Shown piece by piece: positions 9,882 through 40,304 of a stretch of DNA of 64,000 nt. The DNA lies in the IMG/VR virus record IMGVR_UViG_3300033066_001054. One strand, given 5' to 3'. The stretch comes from a virus. Lineage: Duplodnaviria; Caudoviricetes. Under the pieces are notes generated by a model. It made no database searches. It was not told the DNA's origin and saw only the letters and a program-made list of their open reading frames with translations. Positions within the stretch are counted from its first letter, which is position 1; every line of letters begins with the position of its first letter. A program made the translations under genes and the position numbers.

Positions 9882-10279
9882 ACCAGCGACTAGCAGTTAG
9901 ATTTGTCGCAGATTGCGATAAAACACGGACTCGCGGACTAATGTTCGCGAGTCCACTTGACCAAAACGAAATTGCACTATTCGTGTTCCCGCGAGCTGAG
10001 CGACATGCGTTTTGGAACAAGAACGTCGAGTTCCCATTGGACTTGGCGTTCCTCGATGAGAATGGTAAGGTTGTAGACTTCAAACATTTGGACGCACAGT
10101 CCGAATCAAGTGTCAGACCTGATAGCCCGGCACGCTTCGTAGTAGAGGCTGCAAAGGGCACATTCGACCGTTTGAACGTCGCGATGGGCGACTATCTTCT
10201 CTATGAAGGTTCAAACATGACAGTTGTGCGCACGAATCAGCAGGTGAATGCTAGGCATGCGTATAAGATAATCAATTAG
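9878..10279 (+). CDS. DUF192-family protein
   Basis: RTRGLMF...LFVFP...FWNKNVEFPLDLAFLDENGKVV...ARFVVE matches the DUF192 pattern; GTGA overlap with the upstream gene. Confidence 0.85.
   Translation: MNQRLAVRFVADCDKTRTRGLMFASPLDQNEIALFVFPRAERHAFWNKNVEFPLDLAFLDENGKVVDFKHLDAQSESSVRPDSPARFVVEAAKGTFDRLNVAMGDYLLYEGSNMTVVRTNQQVNARHAYKIIN
10240..10267 (+). promoter_or_regulatory. Putative phage promoter GCAGGT-N16-TATAAG
   Basis: Consensus match upstream of the 10305 ORF. Confidence 0.5.
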
Positions 10280-10304
10280 GCATCCGTGGAGGATACACAG
10301 AAAA

Positions 10305-11543
10305 ATGGCAGACCGCATATTTATCAACAAAGACTCAGGTCAATACAGTGAGCGAGAGCTCAATCGTATTGACTGGAGCCAGGTTCGAGACGGCATGCTC
10401 GAGGCTCGAAAGGCTGCGAATGCTGGCAAGAACCTAAACCCGTTCGGTATGGTTACCGGACTACTTGACACTAGACTGGCACAGTTTGAGGGAGATGAGA
10501 GTTTCGAATCTCCTGCAATGGGCATGCCAGAAGAGCCAAGCGACGAATCACGCATTCAAATGATTGCTGATGCAGTTGCAAGTGGACAAGACCTTGACAC
10601 AAAGGACGCACAGTTTGGTCTCGATAATGTTGAGGCCGTTGCAGCTAAAGCTGGCATGGAACCAGAAGCAGTTGCAAATACGCTTCAAGATTATGTTGGA
10701 CTCAACATGGACGAGGCTCCGATGGAAGAAGGCGGCGTAGATGAGTTCGCATCGGAAGATGGCGAGCCGGCTATGGAAACCTTCGCCTCTCGTATAGCTA
10801 AGAAGAAGTTGCCTGCTGCTTTGGAGAAATTCAAATTCAAGCAAAAGGGCGGCGATAATCCTGAAAAGCACGAGGACAAAGACAAAGAGGAAAAGGAAGA
10901 AGAGGACGACGAAGGTGCAGAAGCTATGCTTCGCAAGGGTGACGAGCGCAAGGCTGGTCGCAAAATCGTCTTCACAAACCCCGCTCAATTGAGCGCGGCC
11001 GCTGTTGAAGCTGCACGCGCCGCTGGTGACGAAGAGTTGGTTCGTGCAACATTGGCTGCACGTGCCGAACGACGAGTTGCCATTGGTCAACTTGCCGCTG
11101 AAGCAACCCTTGAGCAAATCACTCGAGAGGCAAAAAGCAAGCGCCGAGCCGCCACCGCAACCAAGGTGGAAAAACCAAAAGAGGTAAAAGCTAACGTGAA
11201 AACAGACAAAACAACAACCGGCGAAGACTTTGTCAAGCCCACAGAACTTAGCACTGGTCAAAAATCGGCGTTCGCAAGCAAGGCTCGTGAACTCGGTTTT
11301 CCTGAGAAGTACATCACCGCCTTGCTAGGCACCCGCAACGCAAACACCGTCACCGAAGATGACGTTCGACGCATTGCAGAAGGTCCTGGCAAATACCAAG
11401 AAAAGGTAGAGCGCGTGGCTTCTATGATTCGTGAAGCAAAGCTCGATGACGCTAATCGAAGCCGAATCGTCAAGTTCTGGGTTGAAGAACTCGGATACCC
11501 GGCTGACTACATCAGCAAGATGGTTGAAGATTACCAAGCGTAA
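10305..11543 (+). CDS. Hypothetical head-associated protein (acidic then basic low-complexity regions)
   Basis: 412-aa ORF with GGAGG Shine-Dalgarno, within the head gene block. Confidence 0.75.
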   Translation: MADRIFINKDSGQYSERELNRIDWSQVRDGMLEARKAANAGKNLNPFGMVTGLLDTRLAQFEGDESFESPAMGMPEEPSDESRIQMIADAVASGQDLDTKDAQFGLDNVEAVAAKAGMEPEAVANTLQDYVGLNMDEAPMEEGGVDEFASEDGEPAMETFASRIAKKKLPAALEKFKFKQKGGDNPEKHEDKDKEEKEEEDDEGAEAMLRKGDERKAGRKIVFTNPAQLSAAAVEAARAAGDEELVRATLAARAERRVAIGQLAAEATLEQITREAKSKRRAATATKVEKPKEVKANVKTDKTTTGEDFVKPTELSTGQKSAFASKARELGFPEKYITALLGTRNANTVTEDDVRRIAEGPGKYQEKVERVASMIREAKLDDANRSRIVKFWVEELGYPADYISKMVEDYQA

Positions 11544-11622
11544 CCTTTAACTCCACGATGCTATCTGGGCACAGATTCTGTCAACTGTGCCCAGAACCAA
11601 ACCAGACAGGCAGGAAAAACAA

Positions 11623-11838
11623 ATGTTGAAAACAAACAGAGTACAAAGGGTTGATGCAGGCAATATGAGTGCATTGGTTGAGGCTGTTAAAAAGCAGATG
11701 AGCAACCAAGGCGATGCTTTGAGCAAGGATGCCTCTAAACTATTAGACGGGCGCAATGGCTGTAATGGCTATAGTGCCGATGGCACGGCGCAACCCGCCA
11801 CAATGACTGGTAACGGCATTGTAATCTCAGAATTGTAA
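11623..11838 (+). CDS. Small hypothetical protein
   Basis: Fills the gap between co-oriented genes; AGGA upstream of ATG 11623 (the track starts it at 11587). Confidence 0.55.
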   Translation: MLKTNRVQRVDAGNMSALVEAVKKQMSNQGDALSKDASKLLDGRNGCNGYSADGTAQPATMTGNGIVISEL

Positions 11839-11850
11839 GAGGACAGAACA

Positions 11851-12720
11851 ATGAGAAGAGCATTCCAAAAAGTATCGGAGCAAAATCAAGCACCTGATTA
11901 TGTGTTGAAGCGTTTTGCTGCCACTGAAGATAGTCTTGAAGTAGACCCATATGAGGGTCTGCGACAACGAGCTGCCGAGAACCAACAAAGAATTGCACAT
12001 GATGAATTGGTGTACGGTCGACCCGAGGCGCCAAAGCCAACACGAGAGTGGGAGCAGGAAAGAATTGCAGACACGTATCGGCCACGGCAAATGAGCCGAA
12101 ACGCAGACAGCTTTGAACCAGAAGACCTTAGCCGTCGTTCTGTCAGGCGTGTTGAAACCGCAGAAACACACAATCCGGGCTATCGCCCAATGGAAAGTTA
12201 CAACAGTGGCGGCAACGAACTTTATGTTACCCGCATGGACGCTGAGCGAATGCTATACAACGGCGAATCGTTCTTCGACCCACAGTTGGCAGAAATTACG
12301 TCAACAATTGCCGAGCGAGATATGCGAAGGAAAGCCGAACAAGCAATGCGTGACAAGCAGTCATTGGTTGGTAGCCAGTGGGAGAAGCAGGCCACTGGCC
12401 GGGCTCGTCGCGAGCACAAGCGTGTACTTGACCGATGGAGCAATTTTGACGCAGTTAATGGTGGTTTTACCAGGGTGGCTAACGAACGAGAGGCCGCAGG
12501 CCGATTTGGTATGGCGGACCCAACTGCTGCACTACAACGAGATATGCTTCGACAAGAGGCTGTTCAAGAGCGAATGCAACGAAAAGCAGCTATCAAGGGC
12601 ATCGACCATGCCACACCAGCACAACGAAATTCATGGGAAGACGAAGTGCAATTGATGGCCGGCACAATGCAACAAGACCACTCAATGTCTTGGATTAGCG
12701 ACTTCTTCAAAGGTAAGTAA
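11851..12720 (+). CDS. Hypothetical Arg/Glu-rich protein
   Basis: 289-aa ORF, GAGGA upstream, tightly packed. Confidence 0.75.
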   Translation: MRRAFQKVSEQNQAPDYVLKRFAATEDSLEVDPYEGLRQRAAENQQRIAHDELVYGRPEAPKPTREWEQERIADTYRPRQMSRNADSFEPEDLSRRSVRRVETAETHNPGYRPMESYNSGGNELYVTRMDAERMLYNGESFFDPQLAEITSTIAERDMRRKAEQAMRDKQSLVGSQWEKQATGRARREHKRVLDRWSNFDAVNGGFTRVANEREAAGRFGMADPTAALQRDMLRQEAVQERMQRKAAIKGIDHATPAQRNSWEDEVQLMAGTMQQDHSMSWISDFFKGK

Positions 12721-24830: not shown

Positions 24831-25691
24831 ATGAGCAACATCCGAAACGTATATGGCATTGACGAGCAAAACGAAGAGTTTCTCGCCGCCGCTATGGACA
24901 CCCCCGAAGGTCGCGTCGCATTAGCGCAAGCTATGGTTGAACCCATTAAGACATCTTTGATGTACCAAGGTGTAGGCCGCAAGCTGCTGATGGTTGACGA
25001 ACTGCCGCAGGGTGCCCTTCCTCGCTACGAGCGAGACATCGCAGTTAAGTCTTACGTAATGAGTAAGCGTGGTTCAGTTCCAACGTCTATCGTTGAAGCT
25101 GAAGAGTTGATGGTTCCGGTTCTTGAAATCGCTTGTAACCCAACCGTCAAGCTCAACGAAATCCGTGCCCGACGATTCTATATTGTCGACCGCGCACAGG
25201 TGAGGGCCAAGGACTCATTGCAGCGACAAGAGGACGCCGAAGTCTTCCGCGTTATCAACGCGGCTGTACCTTCAGCACACAACATCACGGTTACTGGTTC
25301 ACTCCAGCCCGAGAACATCAACCTCGCTCTGTCTCTCATTGAAGAGCACGAGTTGATTGGTGCCAAAATTGTTGTGCATCCTCAGCGCTACAAAGACATC
25401 CGAACATGGGGCAAGGAGTTCTATGATGAAGCGACAACTCGCGACATCTTGATGACCGGACTTTTCGGTCACTTGTACTCCGCTGACATTCACGTCAGCA
25501 CCATCGTTCCAAAGAACGCTGTCTACGTATTGGCACCGGCCGCCTTCGTTGGCGCCATGCCAGTCCGCCAGGACATCACCGTTCTTCCGAGCGACGACCC
25601 TCGACGACTCCGCCTCGGCTGGGTCATCTTCGAGGAACTTGGCTTCGCCGTTATCAACGACTACGCCACCGCTCGAATCATCGTTAGCTAA
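24831..25691 (+). CDS. Major capsid protein (compact HK97 fold)
   Basis: Strong AGGAG SD, C-ending codon bias, terminator directly after; spine-helix-like DRAQVRAKDSLQRQEDAEVF, A-domain-like IVVHP and GHLYSADIHVST, terminal GFAVIND...RIIVS. Confidence 0.85.
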   Translation: MSNIRNVYGIDEQNEEFLAAAMDTPEGRVALAQAMVEPIKTSLMYQGVGRKLLMVDELPQGALPRYERDIAVKSYVMSKRGSVPTSIVEAEELMVPVLEIACNPTVKLNEIRARRFYIVDRAQVRAKDSLQRQEDAEVFRVINAAVPSAHNITVTGSLQPENINLALSLIEEHELIGAKIVVHPQRYKDIRTWGKEFYDEATTRDILMTGLFGHLYSADIHVSTIVPKNAVYVLAPAAFVGAMPVRQDITVLPSDDPRRLRLGWVIFEELGFAVINDYATARIIVS

Positions 25692-25709: not shown

Positions 25710-25743
25710 ACAGGCCCCGCCATAGGCGGGGCCTGTTTTGTTT
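25710..25743 (+). terminator. Intrinsic terminator after MCP
   Basis: acaggccccgcc-ata-ggcggggcctgt followed by tttgttt. Confidence 0.9.
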
Positions 25744-25750
25744 GTATAAG
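25722..25750 (+). promoter_or_regulatory. Putative promoter for the MCP-fragment operon, ATAGGC-N17-TATAAG
   Basis: Near-consensus match overlapping the terminator; TATAAG lies 6 nt before in-frame GTG 25757. Confidence 0.5.
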
Positions 25751-25756
25751 GCTGAA

Positions 25757-25981
25757 GTGGTCGAAAAACAACATAATACAGAGTTGAATAATGGATTCTA
25801 TGACGCAGCGACACAGCGCGATATATTGAAGACAGGTTACTACGGTCATTTGTATTCAGCAAGTATACATGTTAGCACAATGGTTCCTAGAAACACTGTG
25901 GAAACTATGGATAGGGTGTTGCAATCAGAAGAACAGCGTAAGCAACTTTCTGATTACATGCGGTCGTGGTTGAAGAAATGA
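25757..25981 (+). CDS. MCP-fragment mini-protein A (MCP 197-231 plus YMR tail)
   Basis: FYDAATQRDILKTGYYGHLYSASIHVSTMVPRNTV vs MCP, 26/35 identical; tail LSDYMRSW. Start uncertain (the track gives TTG 25742). Confidence 0.85.
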   Translation: MVEKQHNTELNNGFYDAATQRDILKTGYYGHLYSASIHVSTMVPRNTVETMDRVLQSEEQRKQLSDYMRSWLKK

Positions 25982-26223
25982 GCAACGGCGAAATTATACT
26001 ACCAGGTGCCTTCGATGGCGCATTGCCGATGAGAGAAGACATAACGATTTTGCCAGCCACACCTGTGCCACGAGATAAACAGGGACTTGGCTGGGTGGTT
26101 TTTGAAGAAGTTGGTGAAGCAATAATCAACAACTATGCTATTGATAGAATAGTGGTCAGTAATCAAACTCAAGAAGATATCAAACGAGCGCTGGAAGAAT
26201 ACATGAGGAAATATGCAAGGTAG
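25978..26223 (+). CDS. MCP-fragment mini-protein B (MCP 236-286 plus YMR tail)
   Basis: PGAFDGALPMREDITILP (12/18) and LGWVVFEEVGEAIINNYAIDRIVVS (17/25) vs the MCP C-terminus; tail LEEYMRKY; ATGA overlap with A. Confidence 0.85.
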   Translation: MSNGEIILPGAFDGALPMREDITILPATPVPRDKQGLGWVVFEEVGEAIINNYAIDRIVVSNQTQEDIKRALEEYMRKYAR

Positions 26224-26434
26224 CAGTGAATCAAAACCATATAAGGCGTTTGGGCGCAAGCTGTTAATGGTTGACGAATTACCTCAGGGTGCATTAGCAA
26301 AATACGAGCGTGACGTACAAGTGAAATCGTATGTCATACCACGTCGTGGTGGTGTGCCCGGAGCTGTTTCAGAACCTTATGCACCAATTGACACACTCAA
26401 GGAATATATTAGGAAGTGGATGAGTAGTGGCTAA
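26213..26434 (+). CDS. MCP-fragment mini-protein C (MCP 49-84 plus YIR tail)
   Basis: GRKLLMVDELPQGALAKYERDVQVKSYVIPRRGGVP, 28/36 identical; tail LKEYIRKW. Confidence 0.85.
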   Translation: MQGSSESKPYKAFGRKLLMVDELPQGALAKYERDVQVKSYVIPRRGGVPGAVSEPYAPIDTLKEYIRKWMSSG

Positions 26435-26660
26435 AAACACAAATCAACAAAGAGAGGACCAAATAACAGCGGCGCTTAGCACCCCAGAAGGCAAGGCAGC
26501 ACTTCGTGCCGCGATGTCCGCGCCAATACAGACTTCGATAATGTATCAGAACATCGGCGCGAAACTGCTAATGGTAGATTCATTGCCAGACCCTTATGAC
26601 GAATATCCGAATGCCCGTGACGCTGTTAGCGATTACATGAAAAAATGGGTGCAAAAATGA
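26427..26660 (+). CDS. MCP-fragment mini-protein D (MCP 12-59 plus YMK tail)
   Basis: QQREDQITAALSTPEGKAALRAAMSAPIQTSIMYQNIGAKLLMVDSLP, 28/48 identical; tail VSDYMKKW. Confidence 0.85.
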   Translation: MAKNTNQQREDQITAALSTPEGKAALRAAMSAPIQTSIMYQNIGAKLLMVDSLPDPYDEYPNARDAVSDYMKKWVQK

Positions 26661-26851
26661 CCGCGAACCCACTGGCTAACATCAATGCAGCTCTCGAGGC
26701 ATTGGAACAACACGAATTGGCCGGCGCAAAAATCATCATTCATCCGAGCAGGTATGCCGATATTGAGCGATGGAGAAGAGAAGATGACGCCACAATACGC
26801 GAGCAGTTTAGCAAGTACATGCGAGGATATTTGGGTCAAGACATCAAGTAA
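26657..26851 (+). CDS. MCP-fragment mini-protein E (MCP 162-193 plus YMR tail)
   Basis: NINAALEALEQHELAGAKIIIHPSRYADIERW, 20/32 identical; tail FSKYMRGY; ATGA overlap with D. Confidence 0.85.
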   Translation: MTANPLANINAALEALEQHELAGAKIIIHPSRYADIERWRREDDATIREQFSKYMRGYLGQDIK

Positions 26852-27393
26852 TATTCAGAGACATCTTGACCCATGGCTGCTTCACATTTGTCAACAATTT
26901 TGACAATGTAGTCTGATATTCCTTTATGTTGCAATGAACTGAGTTTCGACATTTCACTGAGTGTGTATGTCATTTCTTTGAATGATTCCATACGTCGCTC
27001 ATCTTGTGCCAACATTTGTTGACCAATCAAAACACCGAACATCTGCGGGTCTTGGACCCCAAAATCCTTGCTGTGGTATTTGATTGTGTGAATAGACCTG
27101 ATTGCGTGTTCTGCATGCTCGAATTCTGTTAAACAACGAATTAAAGAGGTGTACAGTGCTGCCAATTCTCCAGTCATCTGCACTTCGCCAGACACCAACA
27201 CTGGCAATAGACTGTATTGGATTGTTCGAATACAGGCACTCATTTCAGCGTTGGGCTCGAATGCCATGTTCGATGGCATTTCGTCCGGGGACTCATTGAG
27301 TTGTTGCTGAATGGTCGACGTGTTATTGTCGATTCTCTCTTGCTCAATTCCCTGGATGTCGTCTGGAATACTTGCCTTTCTAAATCGTTTCAT
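26836..27393 (-). CDS. Hypothetical helical protein
   Basis: 185-aa ORF, ATGA-coupled to the upstream minus-strand gene. Confidence 0.7.
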   Translation of the reverse strand: MKRFRKASIPDDIQGIEQERIDNNTSTIQQQLNESPDEMPSNMAFEPNAEMSACIRTIQYSLLPVLVSGEVQMTGELAALYTSLIRCLTEFEHAEHAIRSIHTIKYHSKDFGVQDPQMFGVLIGQQMLAQDERRMESFKEMTYTLSEMSKLSSLQHKGISDYIVKIVDKCEAAMGQDVSEYYLMS

Positions 27394-27746
27394 TGTAGCG
27401 TCAATAGATACTTGAGTTTGTTCATTGCAGCAAGCATCTCATCCCTGAGATTAAGTAAGTCCGAATCTGATTGTTCAAACACATTGTTAAACTCTATCAG
27501 ATATTCAATGCAGTGACCGATGAACTCAATAGGTTCAACATTTACAGAAAGCGATATGCTCAATTTATCTTCGCGGATTCTGCTTTGGGATTTGCCCAAG
27601 TACACTTCGACAAATTCATCAACAAGTCCATCAAGTGCTTCGTAGGTTTTTCCAAACGCCTCGTGTTGCGCGAAACTTTTGGTCTGCCAGTGGAACACAC
27701 GAATTTGTTGTTGAATCGTGATGAGGTTTCCAATTAGCTGACTCAT
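27390..27746 (-). CDS. Ferritin/Dps-like four-helix-bundle protein (DUF5856-like)
   Basis: FHWQTKSFAQHEAFGKTYEALDGLVDEFVEVYLG...DLLNLRDEMLAAMNKLKYLLTL. Confidence 0.8.
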   Translation of the reverse strand: MSQLIGNLITIQQQIRVFHWQTKSFAQHEAFGKTYEALDGLVDEFVEVYLGKSQSRIREDKLSISLSVNVEPIEFIGHCIEYLIEFNNVFEQSDSDLLNLRDEMLAAMNKLKYLLTLQ

Positions 27747-27781
27747 AGTGTATTATTCGCCATGAATCAAACACCGCCCTT

Positions 27782-28699
27782 TCAGACCATCGCAAGTTCT
27801 TTTGAATTCGGCAACGGCGTGTTCAAGGCTGATACGATTTCATCAGCGAAATTCTCTTTCGGTCTACACCAAGATGTGTGCTCGTAGTTGACCTTATTTG
27901 CGCTTGATTCGTATTTCTTTGGATTGTGCCTGAGCAAAAGTTTCTGTGCTAATAGTGTATCTGCTATTGGGATATTGGTTCCCATGTGTCCGCAAAATGC
28001 TTGTTCAACCTTATTCTTATCACCGAGGCGCAAAACGTTGCCATGAAGTGTATACAAAAGCCGGTATTTGATGCCGCATTTTGATACAACATCAAACCAT
28101 CCTTGCTTCTTCAGTGAACGCTTTTGCACTGGCGACAAGTGTTCCCAAAGCAAATGAATTGCTCGGTGAGTAGCCTTGGCCCGGAGCATTGCATTTCGCT
28201 CAATCTCTGCTTCACGTGCCCGACGTTGCTCTTCGAGTAATTCTCTCTCTTCCTCAGTGAGTTCTCGAGATGTAATCCCACCCAGCATTGCGCCGAAATA
28301 GTTCGATGTATCACTTGATGCAATGTACTGAAGCACCTGGCCCGAAGCAGTACACCCCTCAGCGGTACTGAGTATCAGATTTTGCAGTTCGGTATTTGAA
28401 CTGCCTGGCGTCATTGCCAGCCTCACTGACCAATATGGATAAGACCCTTCAGTGGCGGTGGCGGTTATGTTTTGAACTACATAATTGCAATTTGAACCAG
28501 TGATAACTCTTGTGTTAGCCAAAAGTTCAATTGCCGCAGTGTCGTCTACTTCAAATTCATATACAGCACTTAGGGTTGTATCGGTTCGATACGCGGTAAT
28601 TGCCGTGTTGCTCATAGTCGAAAGATGCACGCTATGGCTGGTTCCAGAAGTAGCGCAACCTGACCAATACAACCCAAGAGAGTTGTTTGTCGAGGGCAT
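27782..28699 (-). CDS. Hypothetical protein (S/T-rich N-terminus, coiled coil, basic C-terminal domain)
   Basis: 305-aa ORF, TAATG-coupled to the upstream gene. Confidence 0.7.
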   Translation of the reverse strand: MPSTNNSLGLYWSGCATSGTSHSVHLSTMSNTAITAYRTDTTLSAVYEFEVDDTAAIELLANTRVITGSNCNYVVQNITATATEGSYPYWSVRLAMTPGSSNTELQNLILSTAEGCTASGQVLQYIASSDTSNYFGAMLGGITSRELTEEERELLEEQRRAREAEIERNAMLRAKATHRAIHLLWEHLSPVQKRSLKKQGWFDVVSKCGIKYRLLYTLHGNVLRLGDKNKVEQAFCGHMGTNIPIADTLLAQKLLLRHNPKKYESSANKVNYEHTSWCRPKENFADEIVSALNTPLPNSKELAMV

Positions 28700-30504: not shown

Positions 30505-32952
30505 ATGGCAAGAGTTTCAGTAGAACACAGATTCACCGGAACAACAGGCCCAATTGATAGTCTTTCAGCACCTACAGTTAGCGTTACAAACATCGGTGCC
30601 ACCGGTGCCACGACATATGGATATCGAGTATCGGCTATCAACAGTGTTGGGGAAACATTGGCCTCGAGTACGGTAACCACCGCGACGGGCAACTCGTCAT
30701 TGACAGGGTCTAACTACAACAGAATTAGCTGGACTAGGGTAATTGGCGCGACAGGATACAAGGTTTACGGACGAACTTCTGGTTCCGAGTTGCTTATGGC
30801 AACCGTTACAACAGCAAATCATTATGATGACACAGGCGCGGTAACGCCATCTGGGGCATTGCCAAGTACAAACACCACAGGGTATTCGTCGTCTAGAACA
30901 TCTATTGGCACCCTGATGCGACAACAAACTGGCACTGCCGATATTGATAAATGGGTTGGCCCATTCCCTGTTGGAATCAGTCGACCCATGGAAGGCAGCA
31001 CTCAGATTCCAGGCATTATGCCGCATGTTATTAGGTGGAGTGGTGATATTGATTGGATTTTCTTGGCCGATAACGCCACCGCAACGACAAGTCGTAGAAT
31101 AGTATTCTACACATACACTCGGTCAACTAATACACTTGCATGGGAGGGCTTTGTCACAATTACCCATCCAAGCGGCACCAACGCCACTATACGTGGATTT
31201 AGAATGGTGTACGACACCTACACTACTGGAACAGTGAGCGTGACCGGAACATCGGTAACCGGAAGTGGTTCAGCTTGGTCAACAAACAGAATTGCTGTTG
31301 GTAGTCGGATTGGATTTGGTTCAACAGACCCAAACTATATTACAAGATGGTATGAAATCTCGGCTATTGGTTCTGACACGGGTATAACACTCGCCGTAGC
31401 GGTTGACGCAAGCGTTGCCGCAAACACACCATATGTCATAGAAGAACTTAGAGTAGTTATGGCTCAAACCAATAACACCGCAACTTCTGGTGGTTTGTTC
31501 GTAGCAAAGGGATTAAGGCCAGAGTTGTTTATCACCTCTGGCACTGCAATTGCGGCTGCTACAACCACCGACAATCAAAGAGCGTGTTATTGGCTTGCAG
31601 ACGCCTCTACTGTTACAAATACAACCTCTCTGGGATTTGGTCTCCAGGCTAAGACCTCATATACAGCACAAAACGTATATGTTTTGGATGGAACATCTGC
31701 ATGTAAGGTGTTTGTTTACAATATCAGGGCGTCATTAACTGGTTTAGCGTCTGGAAAATCAACTTCTGCTCTGTCTTTCTCAACTGGAACACAAACGCTT
31801 ACTGGAACGGCCGGCCAGGTAAATAATGGAAGAATGGGCACGCTGTCTCATGGCCCGGGTTCAGGTATTGAGTGCCTATATTTCTGCACTGGTACTCGTG
31901 TGTATCGAGCCAAAATTACAGATATTGTCAGCGGTTCAACTGTATGGATTTCAGACTGTATGGTTGAGATACCTACGGGTAGCGCAAGTACATATGCCGC
32001 AACCGGTGTGTTGAGCAGTGTGGAGGTAGCGGACTCATTAGACAGGTTAATTATTACTTCTACTGGTGCGTCCGGTGTGAGGCATTACGTTACAAAATAC
32101 CAAACCAATGTAGAACAATTCGATTTGATTTGGGGAGTTGACATAAAACAAATTGACCAAACACTTGCCGACGCCAATACACCGATTGTGCCAGGCAATA
32201 TTCTCGCTACACCATTTACCGTTTGGTCTGAGGCAGGATTAACATACTTGGCCCGCGTAGGCACTGCAGCCACAAACAATCATCTATACGTAGTTCCATT
32301 TGGGGCACATTGGGGATTTCAGTCTGCTGCGCCAACGCAGCGAGTTATCACTCCAGAAATCAGCACACCAAATTGTTTTATGTTTCACAGGGCATGTATG
32401 TCATTTGTGAAAAAACTAGGGGCTGATAAGTTTTCCATATCACCAGAACCAATCAAAATGTTCTATCGAACGAATGGAATTACGGACAATAGTGGTACAT
32501 GGTATGAACTTGATGACTATGCAGATTTATCCGGTGTTGCGCCATCTTCCAGTATACAGTTTATGTTTGAATTCAAAATCATAGGCAATTACTGTGTTCC
32601 AGGTAGGCTGCTGGGGTGTGAGGTTATGTACGAGATTGAAGACACATTGCCGTCACACCTTCAATGGAACCTTAACGATTCCAATAACTCTAATGGCACA
32701 GTTGGGTTTATTCAAAAATCCACTTATGGAAGTGTGCCCAATTTGGAAATCAACTACTATCGCTCAGATAACGATGTTAACTTACTCACGCAAGACAGTA
32801 CATCTAGCACATATGGAGCATTTGAGTATTGGACAGGTGCGGCATGGGCAGCAGGGCTAGGTTCTGATGCAGTTAACCAAAGAAGAAGATTTGTGCCATC
32901 ATCTGGATTGCCAGCAAGCACGAACGTCTACGCTAAAATCAAGGTGATATAA
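30505..32952 (+). CDS. Tail fibre/spike-like protein, paralogue 1
   Basis: T/S/G-rich; N-terminal FN3-like module; GTVSVTGTSVTGSGSAW motif; colinear with the next two genes. Confidence 0.7.
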   Translation: MARVSVEHRFTGTTGPIDSLSAPTVSVTNIGATGATTYGYRVSAINSVGETLASSTVTTATGNSSLTGSNYNRISWTRVIGATGYKVYGRTSGSELLMATVTTANHYDDTGAVTPSGALPSTNTTGYSSSRTSIGTLMRQQTGTADIDKWVGPFPVGISRPMEGSTQIPGIMPHVIRWSGDIDWIFLADNATATTSRRIVFYTYTRSTNTLAWEGFVTITHPSGTNATIRGFRMVYDTYTTGTVSVTGTSVTGSGSAWSTNRIAVGSRIGFGSTDPNYITRWYEISAIGSDTGITLAVAVDASVAANTPYVIEELRVVMAQTNNTATSGGLFVAKGLRPELFITSGTAIAAATTTDNQRACYWLADASTVTNTTSLGFGLQAKTSYTAQNVYVLDGTSACKVFVYNIRASLTGLASGKSTSALSFSTGTQTLTGTAGQVNNGRMGTLSHGPGSGIECLYFCTGTRVYRAKITDIVSGSTVWISDCMVEIPTGSASTYAATGVLSSVEVADSLDRLIITSTGASGVRHYVTKYQTNVEQFDLIWGVDIKQIDQTLADANTPIVPGNILATPFTVWSEAGLTYLARVGTAATNNHLYVVPFGAHWGFQSAAPTQRVITPEISTPNCFMFHRACMSFVKKLGADKFSISPEPIKMFYRTNGITDNSGTWYELDDYADLSGVAPSSSIQFMFEFKIIGNYCVPGRLLGCEVMYEIEDTLPSHLQWNLNDSNNSNGTVGFIQKSTYGSVPNLEINYYRSDNDVNLLTQDSTSSTYGAFEYWTGAAWAAGLGSDAVNQRRRFVPSSGLPASTNVYAKIKVI

Positions 32953-35396
32953 TGGGTAAGGTAGTGGTCGAATCAGTATTTAGCACTGCCTCTTTTGCGC
33001 CAATTGATACGATAGGCACGCCAACTGGTGTCGCAGTAACAAATGTTGGCACTGCAGGTGCTACAACATACGGATATCGAATATCTGCGGTTAATAGTGT
33101 CGGAGAAACACTTGCGTCATCAAGTACAACAACCACTACCGGAAATGCCGCCCTCAGTGCTTCTAACTTCAATAGGATTGCCTGGAGTCGAGTGATGGAT
33201 GCCGCGTCTTACAAGATTTATGGCAGGACTAATGGTTCAGAATTGTATATGGGCACCACAACTGGTCTGCATTTCGATGACACCGGTGCTGTTACCCCAT
33301 CTGGTGCTTTGCCTGGCTCAGATACGTCAAAATATGATTCAACAAAGGTGTGTATAGGTACGGCACTCGAATACCAGTCATCGGACAAAAGCGTTGGTCC
33401 ATTGCCCGTACAAATTGCTAGACCATCAGAAGGCAATATTCAAGTACCAATAAACTTTGTTACCGCAGTCACGTGGAGCAGCAATATTGATTGGATTTTT
33501 GGTGCTGACGCTGCAAGTGCTGCGGCCACAAGACGAATTGTCATGTTTGAATACAATCGGAGTACTGGTGTGCTTACGAGTCGCGGTTTTATCACACTTA
33601 CATACCCTCCTGCAACCAACCATACCATTCGAGGAATTGCTGTTGGATATGATGTGTACACCAAAGGTTCTGTGGCTGTCACTGGAACTGCTGTTACCGG
33701 CACTGGGTCTACATGGACAACAGACCGCCTGGCTGTGGGCAGTCGTATAGGATTTGGTTCTACGGACCCCTCTCAAATTACCAGATGGTATGAGATTTCT
33801 GCTGTTGGAACTGACACAAGTATTACGCTTACTGCGTCAATTGACGCCACCATTGCCGCTGGTTCAGCATATTGTATTGAAGACCTTAGAATTTACACAA
33901 CCACCACAAATGCCACATCAACCAACGGAGGACTGTTTGTGGTTAAGGGCCTAAAACCTGAAGTTTTTACCTATGCAGGAACTACAATATCAGCCGCTAC
34001 GAATGCCGATAGCATCCGTGCAGTTTACTGGCTGGCAGATGCGTCTACGGTCACTAATACTGGCTCGTGTGGTGCGTGCTTAGAAACCAAGGCAAGCTGG
34101 ACTTCACAATTTTTGTATGTTTTAGACAACGCATCAAATAGCAAGTTTTACAAATACAACGTGCGTGCCGCGCTTACGCCAGCATCTGGAAAAGATACAA
34201 CGTCTTTGAATTTACAAACAGGAACATCTGCTGTTACAGGAGTCATACAATCATTCAACAATGGTCGACTCGTAACAACGGGGCATGGGCCAGGAAGCGG
34301 TGCATCTTGCATATATTACACGACTGCTTCAAGGGTGTATAGAGCCGCTGTATCTGGTATCACTGCAGCAAGCACTACATTCAACAACGACAACATGACC
34401 GAGGTGCCGCCCGGTGGAACCAGTACATATGCTGCGACTTCGGCTATTCAGGGAATAGACTACATATATGGAATCGACAGATTTGCTGTGTACACCACCA
34501 GCAGCGGTTCTACACGCCATTATGTTACACAATACCAAACCGGCGGAAGTCAGTTTGATAGTATTTTCTCAGTAGATAGCAAGCAAATAGACCACACACT
34601 ATGCAACCCAGAGATGGCACCACCATCATTGGTTCAGAATACAAGTGTTAACGTGACGTCATTCACAAACTATAACACTACGTATTTTACTAAAGGCGGA
34701 GGAACTGGATTGCTGTCTTGGCTGTATACTTGTAATTTTGGCAGTGATTATGCATTTACGCATATTTCAGGCAACGACCAGTCTATCATAACACCAGAAA
34801 TGACATGTACTGGCAACGTGATGTTTTATCGTGTCTATGTCAATCACTTAAGAGCACATGGTTCAGACAAATACAACCATATACCTGCTGAACCTTTCAA
34901 AATCTGGTATCGCACTAGTGGTATTAGTGACAATAGCGGCGGGTGGACTTTGGTCCCTGCCGGGGGAGTGTTAACTGGTGTAACCGCAACCAGCTCTATT
35001 CAATTCAGAATACGATTCAAAACAATTGGGGCACATTGTCTCCCAACCAAGATATATGGCGTATGTGTTGTGTATGAATCCTCGGCTGATATGCCATCAC
35101 ACCTAAAATGGAATTTTGCTGATACAAATAACAGTACTGGTACTGTTGGATTTGTGCAATGTTGTTATTATGGCAGTGTCCCAAACTTACAAATTGACTA
35201 CTACAGAGCAGATACAGATGCTAACGTATTGTCCCAGGCTAGTACAAGTAGTACTAATGGTGTTTTTGAATATTGGGATGGTTCTGCATGGACGGCTGGT
35301 CTGGGTACAGATACAATTGATATACGACGCAGGTTTAGGCCAACGGCGTCGTTACCAACCGGTGTCAATGTCTACGCAAGGGTGAAGGTAATTTAA
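32952..35396 (+). CDS. Tail fibre/spike-like protein, paralogue 2
   Basis: Shares GSRIGFGSTDP, YWLADASTVTNT, HGPG and PSHL.WN blocks; TAATG coupling. Confidence 0.7.
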   Translation: MGKVVVESVFSTASFAPIDTIGTPTGVAVTNVGTAGATTYGYRISAVNSVGETLASSSTTTTTGNAALSASNFNRIAWSRVMDAASYKIYGRTNGSELYMGTTTGLHFDDTGAVTPSGALPGSDTSKYDSTKVCIGTALEYQSSDKSVGPLPVQIARPSEGNIQVPINFVTAVTWSSNIDWIFGADAASAAATRRIVMFEYNRSTGVLTSRGFITLTYPPATNHTIRGIAVGYDVYTKGSVAVTGTAVTGTGSTWTTDRLAVGSRIGFGSTDPSQITRWYEISAVGTDTSITLTASIDATIAAGSAYCIEDLRIYTTTTNATSTNGGLFVVKGLKPEVFTYAGTTISAATNADSIRAVYWLADASTVTNTGSCGACLETKASWTSQFLYVLDNASNSKFYKYNVRAALTPASGKDTTSLNLQTGTSAVTGVIQSFNNGRLVTTGHGPGSGASCIYYTTASRVYRAAVSGITAASTTFNNDNMTEVPPGGTSTYAATSAIQGIDYIYGIDRFAVYTTSSGSTRHYVTQYQTGGSQFDSIFSVDSKQIDHTLCNPEMAPPSLVQNTSVNVTSFTNYNTTYFTKGGGTGLLSWLYTCNFGSDYAFTHISGNDQSIITPEMTCTGNVMFYRVYVNHLRAHGSDKYNHIPAEPFKIWYRTSGISDNSGGWTLVPAGGVLTGVTATSSIQFRIRFKTIGAHCLPTKIYGVCVVYESSADMPSHLKWNFADTNNSTGTVGFVQCCYYGSVPNLQIDYYRADTDANVLSQASTSSTNGVFEYWDGSAWTAGLGTDTIDIRRRFRPTASLPTGVNVYARVKVI

Positions 35397-37810
35397 TGGC
35401 TAAAATTGCAGTAGAACATGTTTTTGGAAGTGCCACTGTACCATTAGTGCCACTCGAGGAACCAACCAATGTGTTGGTAACAAATTTTGGCACACCTGGT
35501 GCAACAACGTATACATATTACGTATCGGCATACAATACATATGGCGAAACTCTGGCCACAACAGCGATAACAACGACTGGTAACGGAACTCTTTCTGCAT
35601 CTAATTTCAATCGAATTTCATGGGATAAAGTGTGGGGTGCAACTGGATATTACGTTTACAATAGTTCTGGCGCATTTGCCCCAACTTCAAATTTACATTT
35701 TGATGACGTTGGTACTTCCTCAACAGCAAGAAGCCAACAAGAGTCAAACACCAGTGGATATAACTCACTGTATACATCTGCTGGCACGTTGATGTATCAA
35801 TCAGGAGGGGCCATTGGTCCAATGCCAGTTAAGGTTGCAAGACCGATGGGGCAATCAACGGCATTTCAGTGCGCATTTCCTTCTGTTGTATCATGGAGTC
35901 CTACGGTTGATTGGGTGTTTTTAATTGAAGGTAGTGCGGCGGCGGCGACGAGGCGGGCGATGCTTTACGAATTTGACCGCAGTACAGATGCGTTTACATG
36001 GAAGGGTTATGTCACATTAACATTTCCAACAGCTACAAACCATACAGTTCGCGGCTTTGCAATGACCTATGACATATATGCCACCGGTACTGTGAGTGTA
36101 TCTGGAACGGCAGTTACTGGTTCTGGCACCGCTTGGTCTACAAGTAGGCTTGCGGCAGGTTCGCGTATTGGATTTGGCTCAACAGACCCCAATCAAATTA
36201 GTACATGGTATGAAATCTCAACCATTGGTTCCGACACAAGTATAACCTTAACAGCAACTGCTGGTACAATATCGGCCAATAGTGTATATTGCATCGAAGA
36301 CTTAAGAGCGGTTGTTTCAACCACTAACGCTACTGCGGCCAATGGCGGATTATTTGTAGCCAAGGGACTGAAGTATGAGAACTTTGTGTCGGGCGGCACC
36401 ACTATTTCAGCGGGCGTGTCGACAGATAATGTGCGTGCTGTATTTTGGCTTGCTGATGCCAGTACAGTAACAAATACCGTTGCTTGTGGCAATGCCGTAT
36501 CTGACAAAACAGATTGGAATACTCAATATTGTTACAGTATAGATACAACAGCAACACCAAAAGTATACAAGTATAACTTACGTGCTTCTTTATCTGGTTT
36601 GTCCTCTGGTAAATCAACATCAGCACTTGTTTTGATAACCGGAACTCAAACAGTTACTGGCACTACCTCTCAACAAAACAATGGCGAAGTAGTTGTGGCA
36701 AATCACGGACCCGGAAAGGATATTGAGTGCCTTTATTTCGTTACTACAACACGCGCCTATAGGGCAAAAACATCAGAAATTGTCAACGGCTCTACGGTGT
36801 GGATTGCAGACTGCTATGTAGAAATCCCGCCAGGTGGCACCAATACATTCGCCGCCACATCTGCGCTAGGATACATTGAACACACTGATTTTATGGATGA
36901 TTTTGTGGTGTATTCAACTGGTGCGACTTCTTTTCGTAGTTATATTACAGATTATGCTTCTGCCATTTATCCTTTTGAGTCAATGCTTGGTTATGACACT
37001 AAGCAATTAGACCAATCTGGCGCAGATGCAAATTCAGCTCCGCACCCTTCAATTGGTGTTTCTCAATTGGTTTCGTGGAATGAAGAAGGGATGCACTACG
37101 TTTTAAGGCAAAACTCTTCATCCACACTAAATCAATTGTATGCAGTACCGCTTGCTGCATGTTATACTCACGCATGGGAAAGCGGTCGTGAACAATATGT
37201 TATCACGCCAGCTCTGCCAACCCCAAATGGGGCGACTTTGTATCGAGCATATGCCAATACCCTTTTGGCGCACGGCGGCACAGATGCGTTAATGGTTGAG
37301 GCCGAACCTGTTAAAATATGGTACAGAACCGAAGGAATATATGATAACTCTGGTGTGTGGTACTTATTATCGGATAACGGTGATTTAACTGGTGTAAAGA
37401 CCGGCAAAGACATTCAATTTAGGCTTGCATTTAAGGTTATTGGCGGGCATCAACTGCCATCTAAAGCATATTCTGTTTGTGTGGTTTACGACACTGATAC
37501 AGATTTGCCATCACATTTACAATGGAATATGGGAGACACAAATTCAAGCACTGGCATTGTTGGTTTTATTCAAAAAGGAACTTACGGAAGCGTACCCAAT
37601 TTGCAAATATCATACTATCGTTCAGATAACGACCAGCTTATCTTAACCCAGGCAAGTACCGGTTCTACTTATGGTGCATTTGAGTACTGGAATGGTTCTT
37701 CGTGGGCATCTGGACTTGGTACTGACACCAACGGAATACGTCGAAGGTTCAACCCAACCATAGGTATCTTGACAGGAATTAACGTATATTGTAAATTGAA
37801 GGTGGTGTAA
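35396..37810 (+). CDS. Tail fibre/spike-like protein, paralogue 3
   Basis: Same conserved blocks; TAATG coupling. Confidence 0.7.
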   Translation: MAKIAVEHVFGSATVPLVPLEEPTNVLVTNFGTPGATTYTYYVSAYNTYGETLATTAITTTGNGTLSASNFNRISWDKVWGATGYYVYNSSGAFAPTSNLHFDDVGTSSTARSQQESNTSGYNSLYTSAGTLMYQSGGAIGPMPVKVARPMGQSTAFQCAFPSVVSWSPTVDWVFLIEGSAAAATRRAMLYEFDRSTDAFTWKGYVTLTFPTATNHTVRGFAMTYDIYATGTVSVSGTAVTGSGTAWSTSRLAAGSRIGFGSTDPNQISTWYEISTIGSDTSITLTATAGTISANSVYCIEDLRAVVSTTNATAANGGLFVAKGLKYENFVSGGTTISAGVSTDNVRAVFWLADASTVTNTVACGNAVSDKTDWNTQYCYSIDTTATPKVYKYNLRASLSGLSSGKSTSALVLITGTQTVTGTTSQQNNGEVVVANHGPGKDIECLYFVTTTRAYRAKTSEIVNGSTVWIADCYVEIPPGGTNTFAATSALGYIEHTDFMDDFVVYSTGATSFRSYITDYASAIYPFESMLGYDTKQLDQSGADANSAPHPSIGVSQLVSWNEEGMHYVLRQNSSSTLNQLYAVPLAACYTHAWESGREQYVITPALPTPNGATLYRAYANTLLAHGGTDALMVEAEPVKIWYRTEGIYDNSGVWYLLSDNGDLTGVKTGKDIQFRLAFKVIGGHQLPSKAYSVCVVYDTDTDLPSHLQWNMGDTNSSTGIVGFIQKGTYGSVPNLQISYYRSDNDQLILTQASTGSTYGAFEYWNGSSWASGLGTDTNGIRRRFNPTIGILTGINVYCKLKVV

Positions 37811-37826
37811 TTCACCGGGACAATAA

Positions 37827-40304
37827 ATGGCAGATGGAGTTCAGTTAGGCGGCGGACCACTGCTACTAGCTCCCTCAATCGCGTTGGCGTTCAATGGAAC
37901 AATTGTTGGTCCATCGGGCGCAGATACAATTGTTGGAACCGGTAGCCAGTCTGGAATTTCAGGTATCTTTACGATTCCTGAAGAGTCATTTAACATCCAA
38001 GGCGGAAGCGGAACAATAGCCTTTGCTCCGATTGTCGGGGGTGGTTCAATGGTTCTTACTGGCATTGGCACCGCCAATCAAACCATTACCCACACCAGTA
38101 TTGCTGCTGTGGATTCATATGGAACACACAGCGTGGCAGCAGGGACTATCACACTGACAACCAGTTCGATTGGAACCTCTGGTACTTACGGCACACACAC
38201 AGCAGTTCCTGGCGCGGTAACAATAGTTCACACTTCATTATCTACCAGCGCATCATATGGTTCGCACACATTAGCAAGCACAATAGCCATATTGCCATCC
38301 AGTATTGTAGCAGTAGATGCTTATGGAACACACACTATTGCTCCAGGCACGGCAACAATCACGCATACAAGTTTAGCAACAGCCGAGGCTTATGGGACAC
38401 ACACTATTGTTCCAGGTAGTGTAACAATAGTTCACAACAGTCTATCTACATCGGCTTCTTACGGCACGCACACCTTGGTCGCCGGCACGGTAACAATAGC
38501 ACACACTTCACTGTCGACAAGTGCGTCTTATGGTTCACATACAATTTCAACATCTTACTTGATTACACACAGTTCTATATCGAGCAATGTTGCATATGGC
38601 ACACATACATTAGTGGCCGGCGCGGTAACAATAGTACACACCTCACTGTCGACAAGTGCGTCTTATGGCACACATACAATTGAGTCTGGAAGTAGTACGA
38701 TTATTCATACAAGTGTTGGTTCGGCAGAGTCATATGGTACTCACACGCTGTCACCCGGTGGAGTCGTTGTGACACACACAAGCATCGGAACGGCGGCTGC
38801 ATATGGCACTCATACACTGGCCAGTTCATACAACATTGTTCATAACAGCGTGTCTTCAAACAGCGCATATGGCACCCACACTGTTTTAGTGGGAGCAGTG
38901 GCAATTATTGCGACCTCAATATCAACTGCAGCGTCATATGGAACACACACATTATCTGCTGGCGGCGTAACGATTACTCATACCTCGATTGGTGCAACCA
39001 GTACATATGGCTCTCACACAATTGCCGTTGGTGGAGTAAATATTTCACATATCAGCCTGTCGAGTAATGCGTCTTATGGCACGGCCACTATAACCCCCGG
39101 TGTCGTAAACGTCATCCATGCCAGCATAGGCACTGCAGCCTCGTATGGTGCCCACACAGCCGTTGTTGGTGGTGTATCAATAATCACGAGTGGGGTGGCA
39201 ACCAGCGCGTCCTACGGGGCGCACACATTGGTTCCTGGCGGTGTTGTTGTTGTTGCAACCTCAATTAGCACTGCGGCTGCATATGGAACACACAGTATGT
39301 CAGCAACGTACTCGATTGTGGCCGGTAGTATTGGGGCTTCTAGTTCTTACGGCACACATACGTTTACTGTCGGAGGCGTGAACATATTGGCTACAAGCCT
39401 GTCTAGTGGTGCATCATATGGAACGCACACAATGGTTCCTGGTGCAGTAACCATTGTGCCAACCTCAATTAGTACGGCGTCAAGTTATGGTAACCACACC
39501 ATGGTTCCTGGCACAGTATATGTGGTTGCGACTGGATTGTCGACACAAGAGTCATACGGAGTACACGAGGTTGTATCCAGTAACGTCAATCTTTTCCTAA
39601 GTAGTATCGCCAGTTCAGAAAGCATTGGTGCCACTACATTATATGTCAACACTAACATTGTTCTATCCAACGGCGTCTCATCAGGTTTTGTTGCCAGCAC
39701 GCACGTCATGGTGGCGGGAGAAGTCCTTATTATTGTTGGTGGAATAGCCAGCGAAAGCGCAATAGGACTGACCGCACTGCAATCAACGTATTACATACTT
39801 GCAGTCTCTATTGGAACTACAGAAAGCATTGGAACCCACGCAATGGATGTGACATACTTGATTAGTGTTGATGGCGTTTCTAGCGTACACAGCATTGGTG
39901 CAACAACATTACATACCACATACCAAATCACAATTGGGTCTGGAGTATCTTCTACAGAATCGGTCTCAACTCCGTATATCTTGATTGGCCCTGTGTTTAT
40001 AGACGCAGTATCTGTTCCTGGCGGAGATGCGTATGGAGCACCAAACCTGTATGCCATTGCTTACATTTCACCAAATTCAATTGGTTCAATATTGTCACTT
40101 GGCGACGCAAGGTTGCAACTTCCAGCTATACCAGCACAACTAACATCCCAGTTCGTTGCCGAACCATGTGTGGCAACTAGTCGTATCGCACCGTGTGATA
40201 GTTCAACACAAGCAGTGCCTATGCTGAGGTCTACTGCAAGGTTTGTGGAAGTCAGTTGTATCATCGAAGAGACGAATCCAAGTTCAGAGATAGCTTTCTT
40301 GTAG
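37827..40304 (+). CDS. Fibre-shaft-like protein of 22-23-aa repeats (HTSxxTxxSYGTHT)
   Basis: About 22 clear YGxH-type repeats plus about 8 degenerate ones; very few charged residues. Confidence 0.75.
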   Translation: MADGVQLGGGPLLLAPSIALAFNGTIVGPSGADTIVGTGSQSGISGIFTIPEESFNIQGGSGTIAFAPIVGGGSMVLTGIGTANQTITHTSIAAVDSYGTHSVAAGTITLTTSSIGTSGTYGTHTAVPGAVTIVHTSLSTSASYGSHTLASTIAILPSSIVAVDAYGTHTIAPGTATITHTSLATAEAYGTHTIVPGSVTIVHNSLSTSASYGTHTLVAGTVTIAHTSLSTSASYGSHTISTSYLITHSSISSNVAYGTHTLVAGAVTIVHTSLSTSASYGTHTIESGSSTIIHTSVGSAESYGTHTLSPGGVVVTHTSIGTAAAYGTHTLASSYNIVHNSVSSNSAYGTHTVLVGAVAIIATSISTAASYGTHTLSAGGVTITHTSIGATSTYGSHTIAVGGVNISHISLSSNASYGTATITPGVVNVIHASIGTAASYGAHTAVVGGVSIITSGVATSASYGAHTLVPGGVVVVATSISTAAAYGTHSMSATYSIVAGSIGASSSYGTHTFTVGGVNILATSLSSGASYGTHTMVPGAVTIVPTSISTASSYGNHTMVPGTVYVVATGLSTQESYGVHEVVSSNVNLFLSSIASSESIGATTLYVNTNIVLSNGVSSGFVASTHVMVAGEVLIIVGGIASESAIGLTALQSTYYILAVSIGTTESIGTHAMDVTYLISVDGVSSVHSIGATTLHTTYQITIGSGVSSTESVSTPYILIGPVFIDAVSVPGGDAYGAPNLYAIAYISPNSIGSILSLGDARLQLPAIPAQLTSQFVAEPCVATSRIAPCDSSTQAVPMLRSTARFVEVSCIIEETNPSSEIAFL

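Follow-up and report, generated by a model that had tools for sequence, protein, structure and literature searches.

In a phage-G-like megaphage, five small overlapping genes directly downstream of the gene for the major capsid protein (MCP) encode separate pieces of that capsid protein, each completed by one common C-terminal tail that the capsid protein itself lacks. They were found in a stretch of 64,000 nucleotides from the IMG/VR virus record IMGVR_UViG_3300033066_001054 (hereafter the window), at positions 25742-26851 of the plus strand, directly 3' of the MCP terminator, and are named here genes A to E and, collectively, the array. Comparison with related contigs indicates that they are conserved as proteins and that the tail is their most constrained part; the array could possibly present capsid-derived baits at a common address in the cell. 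The locus comprises the following features:

24831-25691, plus strand: MCP gene (286 amino acids), the parent family of the five fragments
25710-25746, plus strand: strong intrinsic terminator between the MCP gene and the array, with a 12-bp stem (10 G-C pairs) and a T-run
25742-25981, plus strand: gene A, piece resembling MCP residues 197-231, linker and tail ...QLSDYMRSWLKK; motif core at 25946-25969
25978-26223, plus strand: gene B, piece resembling MCP 233-286 and tail ...ALEEYMRKYAR; motif core at 26191-26214; ATG overlapping the A stop (ATGA)
26213-26434, plus strand: gene C, piece resembling MCP 45-89 and tail ...TLKEYIRKWMSSG; motif core at 26396-26419; start inside the B tail
26427-26660, plus strand: gene D, piece resembling MCP 11-59 (N-arm region) and tail ...AVSDYMKKWVQK; motif core at 26625-26648; GTG start inside the C tail
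26645-26851, plus strand: gene E, piece resembling MCP 162-195 and tail ...QFSKYMRGYLGQDIK; motif core at 26807-26830
26836-27393, minus strand: convergent gene (185 amino acids) bounding the array, with no PHROG or Pfam match

The five proteins share the core [LVF]xxY[MI][RK]x[WY], which ends two to six residues before the stop codon in every one of them, and their tails read exactly as they had been quoted in a preliminary description of this DNA, made from its letters alone. Relaxing the motif to [LVFIM]xxY[MIL][RK]x[WYF] gave six matches in the six frames of the window, five of which are the ends of the array open reading frames (ORFs), against 2.2 matches, 1.1 of them near a stop, in shuffled sequence. 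The motif had been described as absent from the MCP, and neither a pattern search in the MCP frame nor an hhalign comparison of the tail profile with the MCP family profile returned a match. The tail profile was equally without similarity (hhalign probability 0.2%) to a 638-amino-acid protein encoded upstream of the MCP, a putative scaffold by its position. Over the eight codons of the core, the five copies average 56% nucleotide identity and 46% amino acid identity. The earlier claim that each copy uses different codons holds for the Arg/Lys codons and for those of the hydrophobic residue at position -3, and fails for the tyrosine, which is TAC in four copies of five. The tails of A and D, together with their AAATGA junctions, are 70% alike over 30 nucleotides, which suggests a long-ago duplication of a tail-plus-junction module.

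Conservation at the protein level, as previously proposed, is borne out by the orthologues described below, in which the proportion of variable sites rises from 19% in the tail to 31% in the capsid-like fragment, 39% in the linker and 54% in the N-terminus. The tyrosine is invariant in all 17 distinct tails, which also keep M/I and W/Y, and the Arg/Lys at position +2 is sometimes replaced by Met, Gly or Ser. The amphipathic character attributed to the tail was likewise recovered: the 11-residue segment with the highest hydrophobic moment falls in the tail in each of the five proteins (0.63-0.84, for a 99th percentile of 0.62 among the long ORFs of the window), and segments of the same length centred on the motif score 0.57-0.74, with net charges of +1 to +2. 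The last 15 residues carry a net charge of +1 to +4, and the bodies of four of the five proteins are acidic. A HeliQuest-type D factor ranges from 0.83 to 1.13 for the five C-termini, and 24% of the other C-termini of the window exceed 0.68. According to the alignment, hydrophobic residues occupy positions -7, -3, 0 and +4, in a 4-3-4 spacing. In an AlphaFold2 model of D, residues 61-75 are drawn as a helix with a predicted local distance difference test (pLDDT) score of about 45-50, which is a weak indication of a tail helix. These properties are consistent with a predicted cationic amphipathic C-terminal helix of 12-15 residues.

The tail appears to be restricted to the array. The preliminary description had proposed to look for further small ORFs carrying it, and motif scans of the 64-kb window and of related loci totalling about 550 kb retrieved none. 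For L001, the closest relative, the DNA pattern of the tag gave 18 matches over the complete genome, including a known remnant of gene E, against 21 for the control, hence no enrichment. A hidden Markov model of the tail had no match in five related genomes, a search insensitive enough to have also missed the known L001 remnant. The last 40 residues of A used as query matched A orthologues only, and the ESM Atlas gave no usable match.

The capsid-derived bodies were assigned from a well-characterised parent. The MCP, of HK97 fold, matches phrog_2522 (E 3e-68) and is 48.6% identical to gp27 of Bacillus phage G, and its family profile matches the gp27 chain in PDB 6wkk with E 2.8e-128. In local alignments the amino acid identity to the MCP is 74% for A, 57% for B, 67% for C, 57% for D and about 52% for E, and B (phrog_2522, E 6e-4), D (phrog_2522, E 8e-6) and E match the MCP family in PHROGs; beyond these weak matches to MCP models, no family was found for the miniproteins in PHROGs or Pfam. 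Each of them, at about 65-85 amino acids, is thus homologous to part of a larger oligomerising protein without the remainder of it. In MCP coordinates, E, A and B form the contiguous segment 162-286, and D and C together cover 11-89. Residues 90-161 are not represented; they include a predicted long helix (121-145 in a low-confidence MCP model) that we take to be the core spine helix of the HK97 fold. The assignment of fragments to structural elements relies on general knowledge of this fold and on the sequence match to 6wkk, and the C piece is on this basis presumably the E-loop region. The AlphaFold2 model of the MCP, built from 27 sequences, was poor (pLDDT 41) and was used neither for structural mapping nor for a fold search. 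Linkers are acidic or proline-rich; x-x-E motifs occur in them, where glutamate is too common to inform on cleavage by a prohead protease.

Derivation of the fragments by copying of the resident MCP was considered and rejected. Among the sites at which the resident MCP and the sister-clade consensus disagree, 16 have the sister-clade residue in the fragments, 7 the resident one and 9 neither, and 48 further fragment sites differ from both MCPs where these agree. By these counts, the fragments are old paralogues or imports rather than recent copies of the resident gene. They also show a consistent set of substitutions peculiar to them, some of which put a charged residue in place of a hydrophobic one (GFA to GEA, FVG to FDG), and their order in the array is scrambled relative to the MCP. 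The likeness to a repeat/spacer array read as protein, drawn in the preliminary description, is therefore formal: the inserts are old and diverged paralogues standing in the same order everywhere, and there is no sign of ongoing acquisition.

Using B as query, five close homologues were retrieved, leading to six metagenome contigs (L044-L049) that carry the same five genes at the same place and in the same order. The arrays are complete in the window, L044, L046 and L049 and partial in L045, L047 and L048, and all their ORFs are open. They were recovered only through a protein-cluster database, pattern scans for B-like genes in IMG/VR and JGI metagenome contigs having found none. Array sequence is also present in runs from river, wastewater and activated-sludge samples belonging to eight studies. 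Indels within the array are multiples of three, and no frame is disrupted in the seven contigs despite synonymous divergence (dS) of up to 1.1. The ratio of non-synonymous to synonymous divergence (dN/dS; Nei-Gojobori method, NG86, pairwise among arrays) lies between 0.09 and 0.5 in nearly all pairs, a single pair reaching 0.87 in gene A; by gene, it is 0.19-0.87 for A, 0.11-0.44 for B, 0.09-0.30 for C, 0.15-0.35 for D and 0.09-0.41 for E. The start of gene A is uncertain, with a conserved core from about ILKTGYYGH: all 18 sites of its N-terminus are variable, and L046 and L049 have a deletion or a frameshift there. For gene E, translation could start at ATG 26645 or at ATG 26657, which overlaps the D stop as ATGA. 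The stop/start overlaps along the array (ATGA for A/B, 11 nucleotides for B/C, 8 nucleotides for C/D and ATGA for D/E) fit translational coupling. These comparisons indicate that the five ORFs are real, translationally coupled genes conserved as proteins, of which the tail is the most constrained part.

The array evolves differently from its surroundings. Between the window and L044, genes B to E show a dS of 0.39-0.81 and a dN of 0.06-0.14, and the genes flanking the array on both sides a dS of 0.04-0.25 and a dN below 0.01. Gene A is not so diverged, which makes the array a mosaic. The last 16 nucleotides of gene E overlap the end of the convergent 185-amino-acid gene, which is kept in all relatives with or without an array and evolves under a dN/dS of 0.03-0.05. 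The terminator between MCP gene and array is kept in L001, L044, L046, L047 and L049. The closest IMG/VR relative, L001, is a complete genome of 478,840 bp, about 92% identical in nucleotides over the head region and with an MCP differing by one residue. It lacks the equivalent of window positions 25752-26747 (site L001:6900-7030), so that the MCP terminator is joined to the last third of gene E; the remnant, preceded by no long ORF, reads ...INYMRSYLGHDIK and keeps the motif. By this sequence comparison, L001 is a deletion derivative. No MCP fragment was detected within 6 kb of the MCP in 41 other related loci (MCP 48-78% identical), and neither MCP fragments nor twin-arginine-tagged pieces were found in the phage G genome and five complete IMG/VR relatives. 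The position behind the MCP gene is a hot spot of variation in relatives, with inserts such as the following:

L007:6948-8123: LAGLIDADG homing-endonuclease gene (PF14528 above cut-off)
L002:6947-7384: zinc-finger protein gene
L038:6932-8677: gene for a 581-amino-acid multidomain protein

The array is thus an accessory, fast-diverging cassette in a variable slot behind the MCP gene, and its evolution looks arms-race-like. Three wastewater metatranscriptome libraries from one study contain contigs that run over the array and across both the terminator and the 3' end of the MCP gene, leaving 27174-27841 uncovered in two runs; as such contigs could derive from DNA, they do not prove transcription or co-transcription. 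No enrichment of TGTATAAG was found in the window.

Capsid pieces in small proteins are not a peculiarity of this locus. The MCP used as query against shorter proteins revealed that they are widespread in the MCP family, and at least 16 small-protein clusters (P0063, P0067, P0072, P0074, P0075, P0077, P0082, P0083, P0089, P0091, P0093, P0099-P0101, P0103 and P0116) fuse an N-terminal twin-arginine signal (RRxFLK followed by a hydrophobic stretch) to an MCP piece, mostly N-arm/E-loop and once the RRFYIVDRA helix segment. PF10518 exceeds its cut-off in P0074 and narrowly misses it in P0089 and P0101. Three of these twin-arginine proteins were placed on phage-like contigs, among nucleotide-metabolism genes and away from any MCP gene, the MCP-piece genes being located at L052:5769-5993, L052:6001-6357, L051:6001-6381 and L053:6001-6459. 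The two adjacent genes of L052 have the common leader MQISR[RQ]xFL[RK] and different MCP pieces, one with the RRFYIVDRA segment, missing from the window array, and the other with N-arm/E-loop. As judged from its sequence, L052 has the same layout of a constant tag plus a variable capsid piece, built with a recognised localisation signal; the layout noticed in the preliminary description therefore recurs independently in other phages. The twin-arginine leader itself is absent from the five proteins of the window.

Other arrangements of MCP-related sequence were noted in this family. In L037, whose MCP is 63% identical, four accessory ORFs located 3-6 kb 3' of the MCP gene (8979-9305, 10187-10381, 11091-11723 and 11901-12356) each have an embedded MCP piece (N-arm twice, E-loop, and P-loop/C-terminus), the pieces sitting inside larger soluble proteins. 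The B-like ORF of 64 amino acids in this set ends in EDKIKKINEYR, resembling the EDIKRALEEYMRKYAR of B. More remote similarities were found in a 176-amino-acid MCP-like ORF with an E-loop-like KVLMRDELPLDNLARYE segment (L054:1507-2037, minus strand, equal to G001:C1:211006-211536), in a 356-amino-acid ORF at G001:C1:304593-305012 that is 26% identical to MCP residues 108-245, and in a match 31% identical to MCP 45-175 at L096:5766-6188, about 2 kb 3' of the MCP gene. These sequences of L054/G001 and L096 are distant MCP-like paralogues in related genomes.

The explanation that we tentatively place first, plausible while still short of probable, is that the capsid pieces are baits and the tail an address or anchor, most likely at the cytoplasmic face of the inner membrane. 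The pieces would engage whatever recognises the corresponding MCP surfaces, which could be the MCP of the phage itself or of a rival phage, a satellite protein, or a host protein sensing the MCP. The shared tail would be their common address or anchor, most likely as a peripheral helix of the MinD and FtsA kind at the cytoplasmic face of the inner membrane, and would hold the bound protein away from its site of action. A peripheral membrane helix is ranked first because of the physicochemical properties of the tail, its location at the C-terminus and the parallel offered by the twin-arginine proteins. The recurrence of the tag-plus-piece layout with a twin-arginine signal favours an address tag, and the use of a different tag in relatives suggests that what counts is where the piece is placed, more than anything the tag does by itself. 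Of the interpretation given in the preliminary description, the conservation and amphipathic character of the tail are supported, whereas the docking of all five baits on one partner and the sequestration or degradation of their ligand are hypothetical. An extension of this idea, according to which G-like megaphages would share a bait-and-address strategy where tiled MCP pieces with localisation tags capture MCP-recognising proteins, such as immune sensors of the host or the MCP of rival phages and satellites, and remove them to the membrane or out of the cytoplasm, is more doubtful. The same doubt attaches to the corresponding division of tags, with a cationic amphipathic C-terminal helix in the window lineage and a twin-arginine signal in others.

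Several points weigh against the bait-and-anchor explanation. The passenger of a twin-arginine signal would end up outside the cytoplasm and a peripheral C-terminal helix inside it, so that the two classes of tag need not work alike. Invariance of Tyr, Met and Trp/Tyr is what one would expect of a specific protein-protein contact more than of a helix with generic lipid binding, the resemblance to MinD and FtsA is judged from simple physicochemical scores, and the AlphaFold2 confidence for the tail helix is low. Moreover, the array stands behind a strong terminator and no sigma-70-type promoter was found before it; transcription by read-through only would be late and below MCP levels, a poor fit for a decoy.

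The tail could instead be a procapsid- or scaffold-docking helix, through which the miniproteins would be loaded into heads or would modulate or poison assembly, by binding the inside of the procapsid or the scaffold-binding site of the MCP like the C-terminal helices that CpmB and Rcm have in common with helper scaffolds or the cargo-loading peptides of encapsulins. We consider this unlikely, although it has points in its favour. The array lies directly behind the head module, which upstream of the MCP encodes the portal, a 1418-amino-acid protein with a head-maturation-protease domain, the 638-amino-acid protein mentioned above, which is acidic, and a 248-amino-acid protein; the array stretch is represented in RNA libraries of one study; and the satellite proteins CpmB and Rcm redirect capsids by acting on the MCP through mimicry of the MCP-binding helices of the helper scaffold (PMC12409344). 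They resemble the array proteins in being small, helical, accessory and fast-evolving, and in acting on an HK97-fold MCP via a short shared helix, but they copy the scaffold and are satellite-encoded, whereas the array bodies copy the MCP, are phage-encoded and have a tail similar neither to the putative scaffold nor to the MCP family. Docking is also difficult to reconcile with the confinement of the tag to the array, with the dispensability of the array in L001 despite an almost identical MCP, and with an MCP that is nearly invariant while the array diverges fast, a poor fit for a co-adapted assembly partner. Still less probable, in our view, is that tail-to-tail contacts unite the five proteins in a single stoichiometric hetero-oligomer such as a helical bundle, yielding either a multivalent particle with five capsid epitopes or an MCP-like body without residues 90-161. 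Translational coupling would provide roughly equal amounts of the partners, the genes are always five and in the same order, and the contiguity of E, A and B, the coverage of 11-89 by D and C and the 4-3-4 hydrophobic spacing would suit such an assembly; yet the hydrophobic stretch spans only about two heptads, the missing MCP segment holds the predicted long helix, which makes a native-like refolding unlikely, and an identical motif on five chains better suits one common receptor. Complex prediction pairing B with E, A (residues 14-79), C and B itself returned a score of 0.00, which counts neither way.

Two explanations that would deny the tails or the genes a function are already largely refuted and seem to us very improbable. 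One attributes the tail to chance similarity or to overlapping translation-initiation signals of which it would be a by-product: every tail but that of E overlaps the start region of the next gene, and the B and C codons for M/I-R-K contain AGGA upstream of the next start. AGGA occurs in the B, C and E tails and not in those of A and D, as correctly noted in the preliminary description; its absence from A and D speaks against such DNA-level coupling signals as the cause, as do the 56% nucleotide identity of the cores and the persistence of the motif in E, which has no downstream cistron, and in the L001 remnant. An invariant Tyr, Met/Ile and Trp/Tyr would not arise from a Shine-Dalgarno-like sequence, and five of the six motif matches in 64 kb are array ORF ends, in what is the least variable part of the proteins. 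That description had named a motif not conserved in homologous arrays as a further reason to abandon its proposal, and conservation was found. The other explanation regards the ORFs as decaying remnants of duplicated or displaced MCP pieces, left for example by mobile elements, for which the scrambled fragment order, the deletion in L001 and a hot spot hosting an endonuclease gene in L007 and other inserts elsewhere could be invoked. Selection analysis leaves it scarcely any room: dN/dS is well below 1 in nearly all pairs, frames are open in seven contigs at a dS of up to 1.1, indels are in frame and the non-MCP tails are conserved.

We know of no phage-encoded set of tiled MCP pieces acting as a countermeasure, and a literature search returned no account of genes for capsid fragments or of capsid pieces bearing twin-arginine signals. 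MicroProteins, known mainly from plants and animals, are dominant-negative regulators of small size that originate from the region through which a larger protein interacts. The array proteins share with them a small size, homology to part of a larger self-assembling protein, separate genes and purifying selection, and differ in that five pieces of one capsid protein are tiled in one operon with an extra non-homologous tag. MinD and FtsA carry C-terminal membrane-targeting amphipathic helices which, like the array tails, stand at the extreme C-terminus after a linker, measure about 10-15 residues and have an aromatic/aliphatic face flanked by Lys/Arg; the sequences are not homologous, and the invariant Tyr, Met and Trp/Tyr of the array tails are unusual for such helices. 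The capsid-targeting sequence of phage T4 is also a short peptide common to several proteins of a phage, but it is N-terminal, cleaved and borne by unrelated cargo, whereas the array tag is C-terminal and restricted to five capsid-fragment proteins, without genome-wide enrichment in L001. The Gol peptide of T4 gp23 is a short MCP segment that activates the Lit protease. CapRel, Lit/Gol and Avs7/8/10 are MCP-sensing defences (see also bioRxiv 10.64898/2026.01.04.697583), the existence of which makes a decoy role conceivable. They show host immunity to read MCP segments in isolation or conserved surfaces of the MCP, as the bait explanation presupposes, the difference being that these defences are host sensors of the full MCP. 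None of these systems, CpmB and Rcm included, combines tiled capsid pieces with one shared non-homologous tag.

Two further features of the window were recorded. The second gene 3' of the array (27390-27746, minus strand), present in all relatives, encodes a 118-amino-acid DUF5856/phrog_858 protein, labelled 'starvation-inducible transcriptional regulator' in PHROGs. Further downstream, positions 30505-40304 hold four tandem paralogous genes of 815, 814, 804 and 825 amino acids, the first without a PHROG match, for which dS between the window and L046 is extremely high (2.8) with a dN of 0.09; they may encode tail fibres or receptor-binding proteins.

Among phage molecules, capsid proteins rank with those that bacterial immunity reads most often, and they are hijacked by satellites and competing phages. 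A conserved operon re-expressing nearly the whole of a capsid protein as separate tagged pieces, together with a much larger sister class bearing twin-arginine signals, points to an undescribed use of capsid-derived peptides, possibly as decoys, assembly inhibitors or anchors. The system is compact, with one 9-residue motif and five genes of some 70 codons each, and could easily be synthesised and tested. If the tail is a membrane anchor, it would bear on where giant capsids assemble. If the bait-and-address proposal is true, the array would represent a decoy system that works at the protein level and is made from the most conserved antigen of the virus itself. It would then add a novel kind of weapon against defences or other viruses, and a natural collection of peptides from MCP interfaces.

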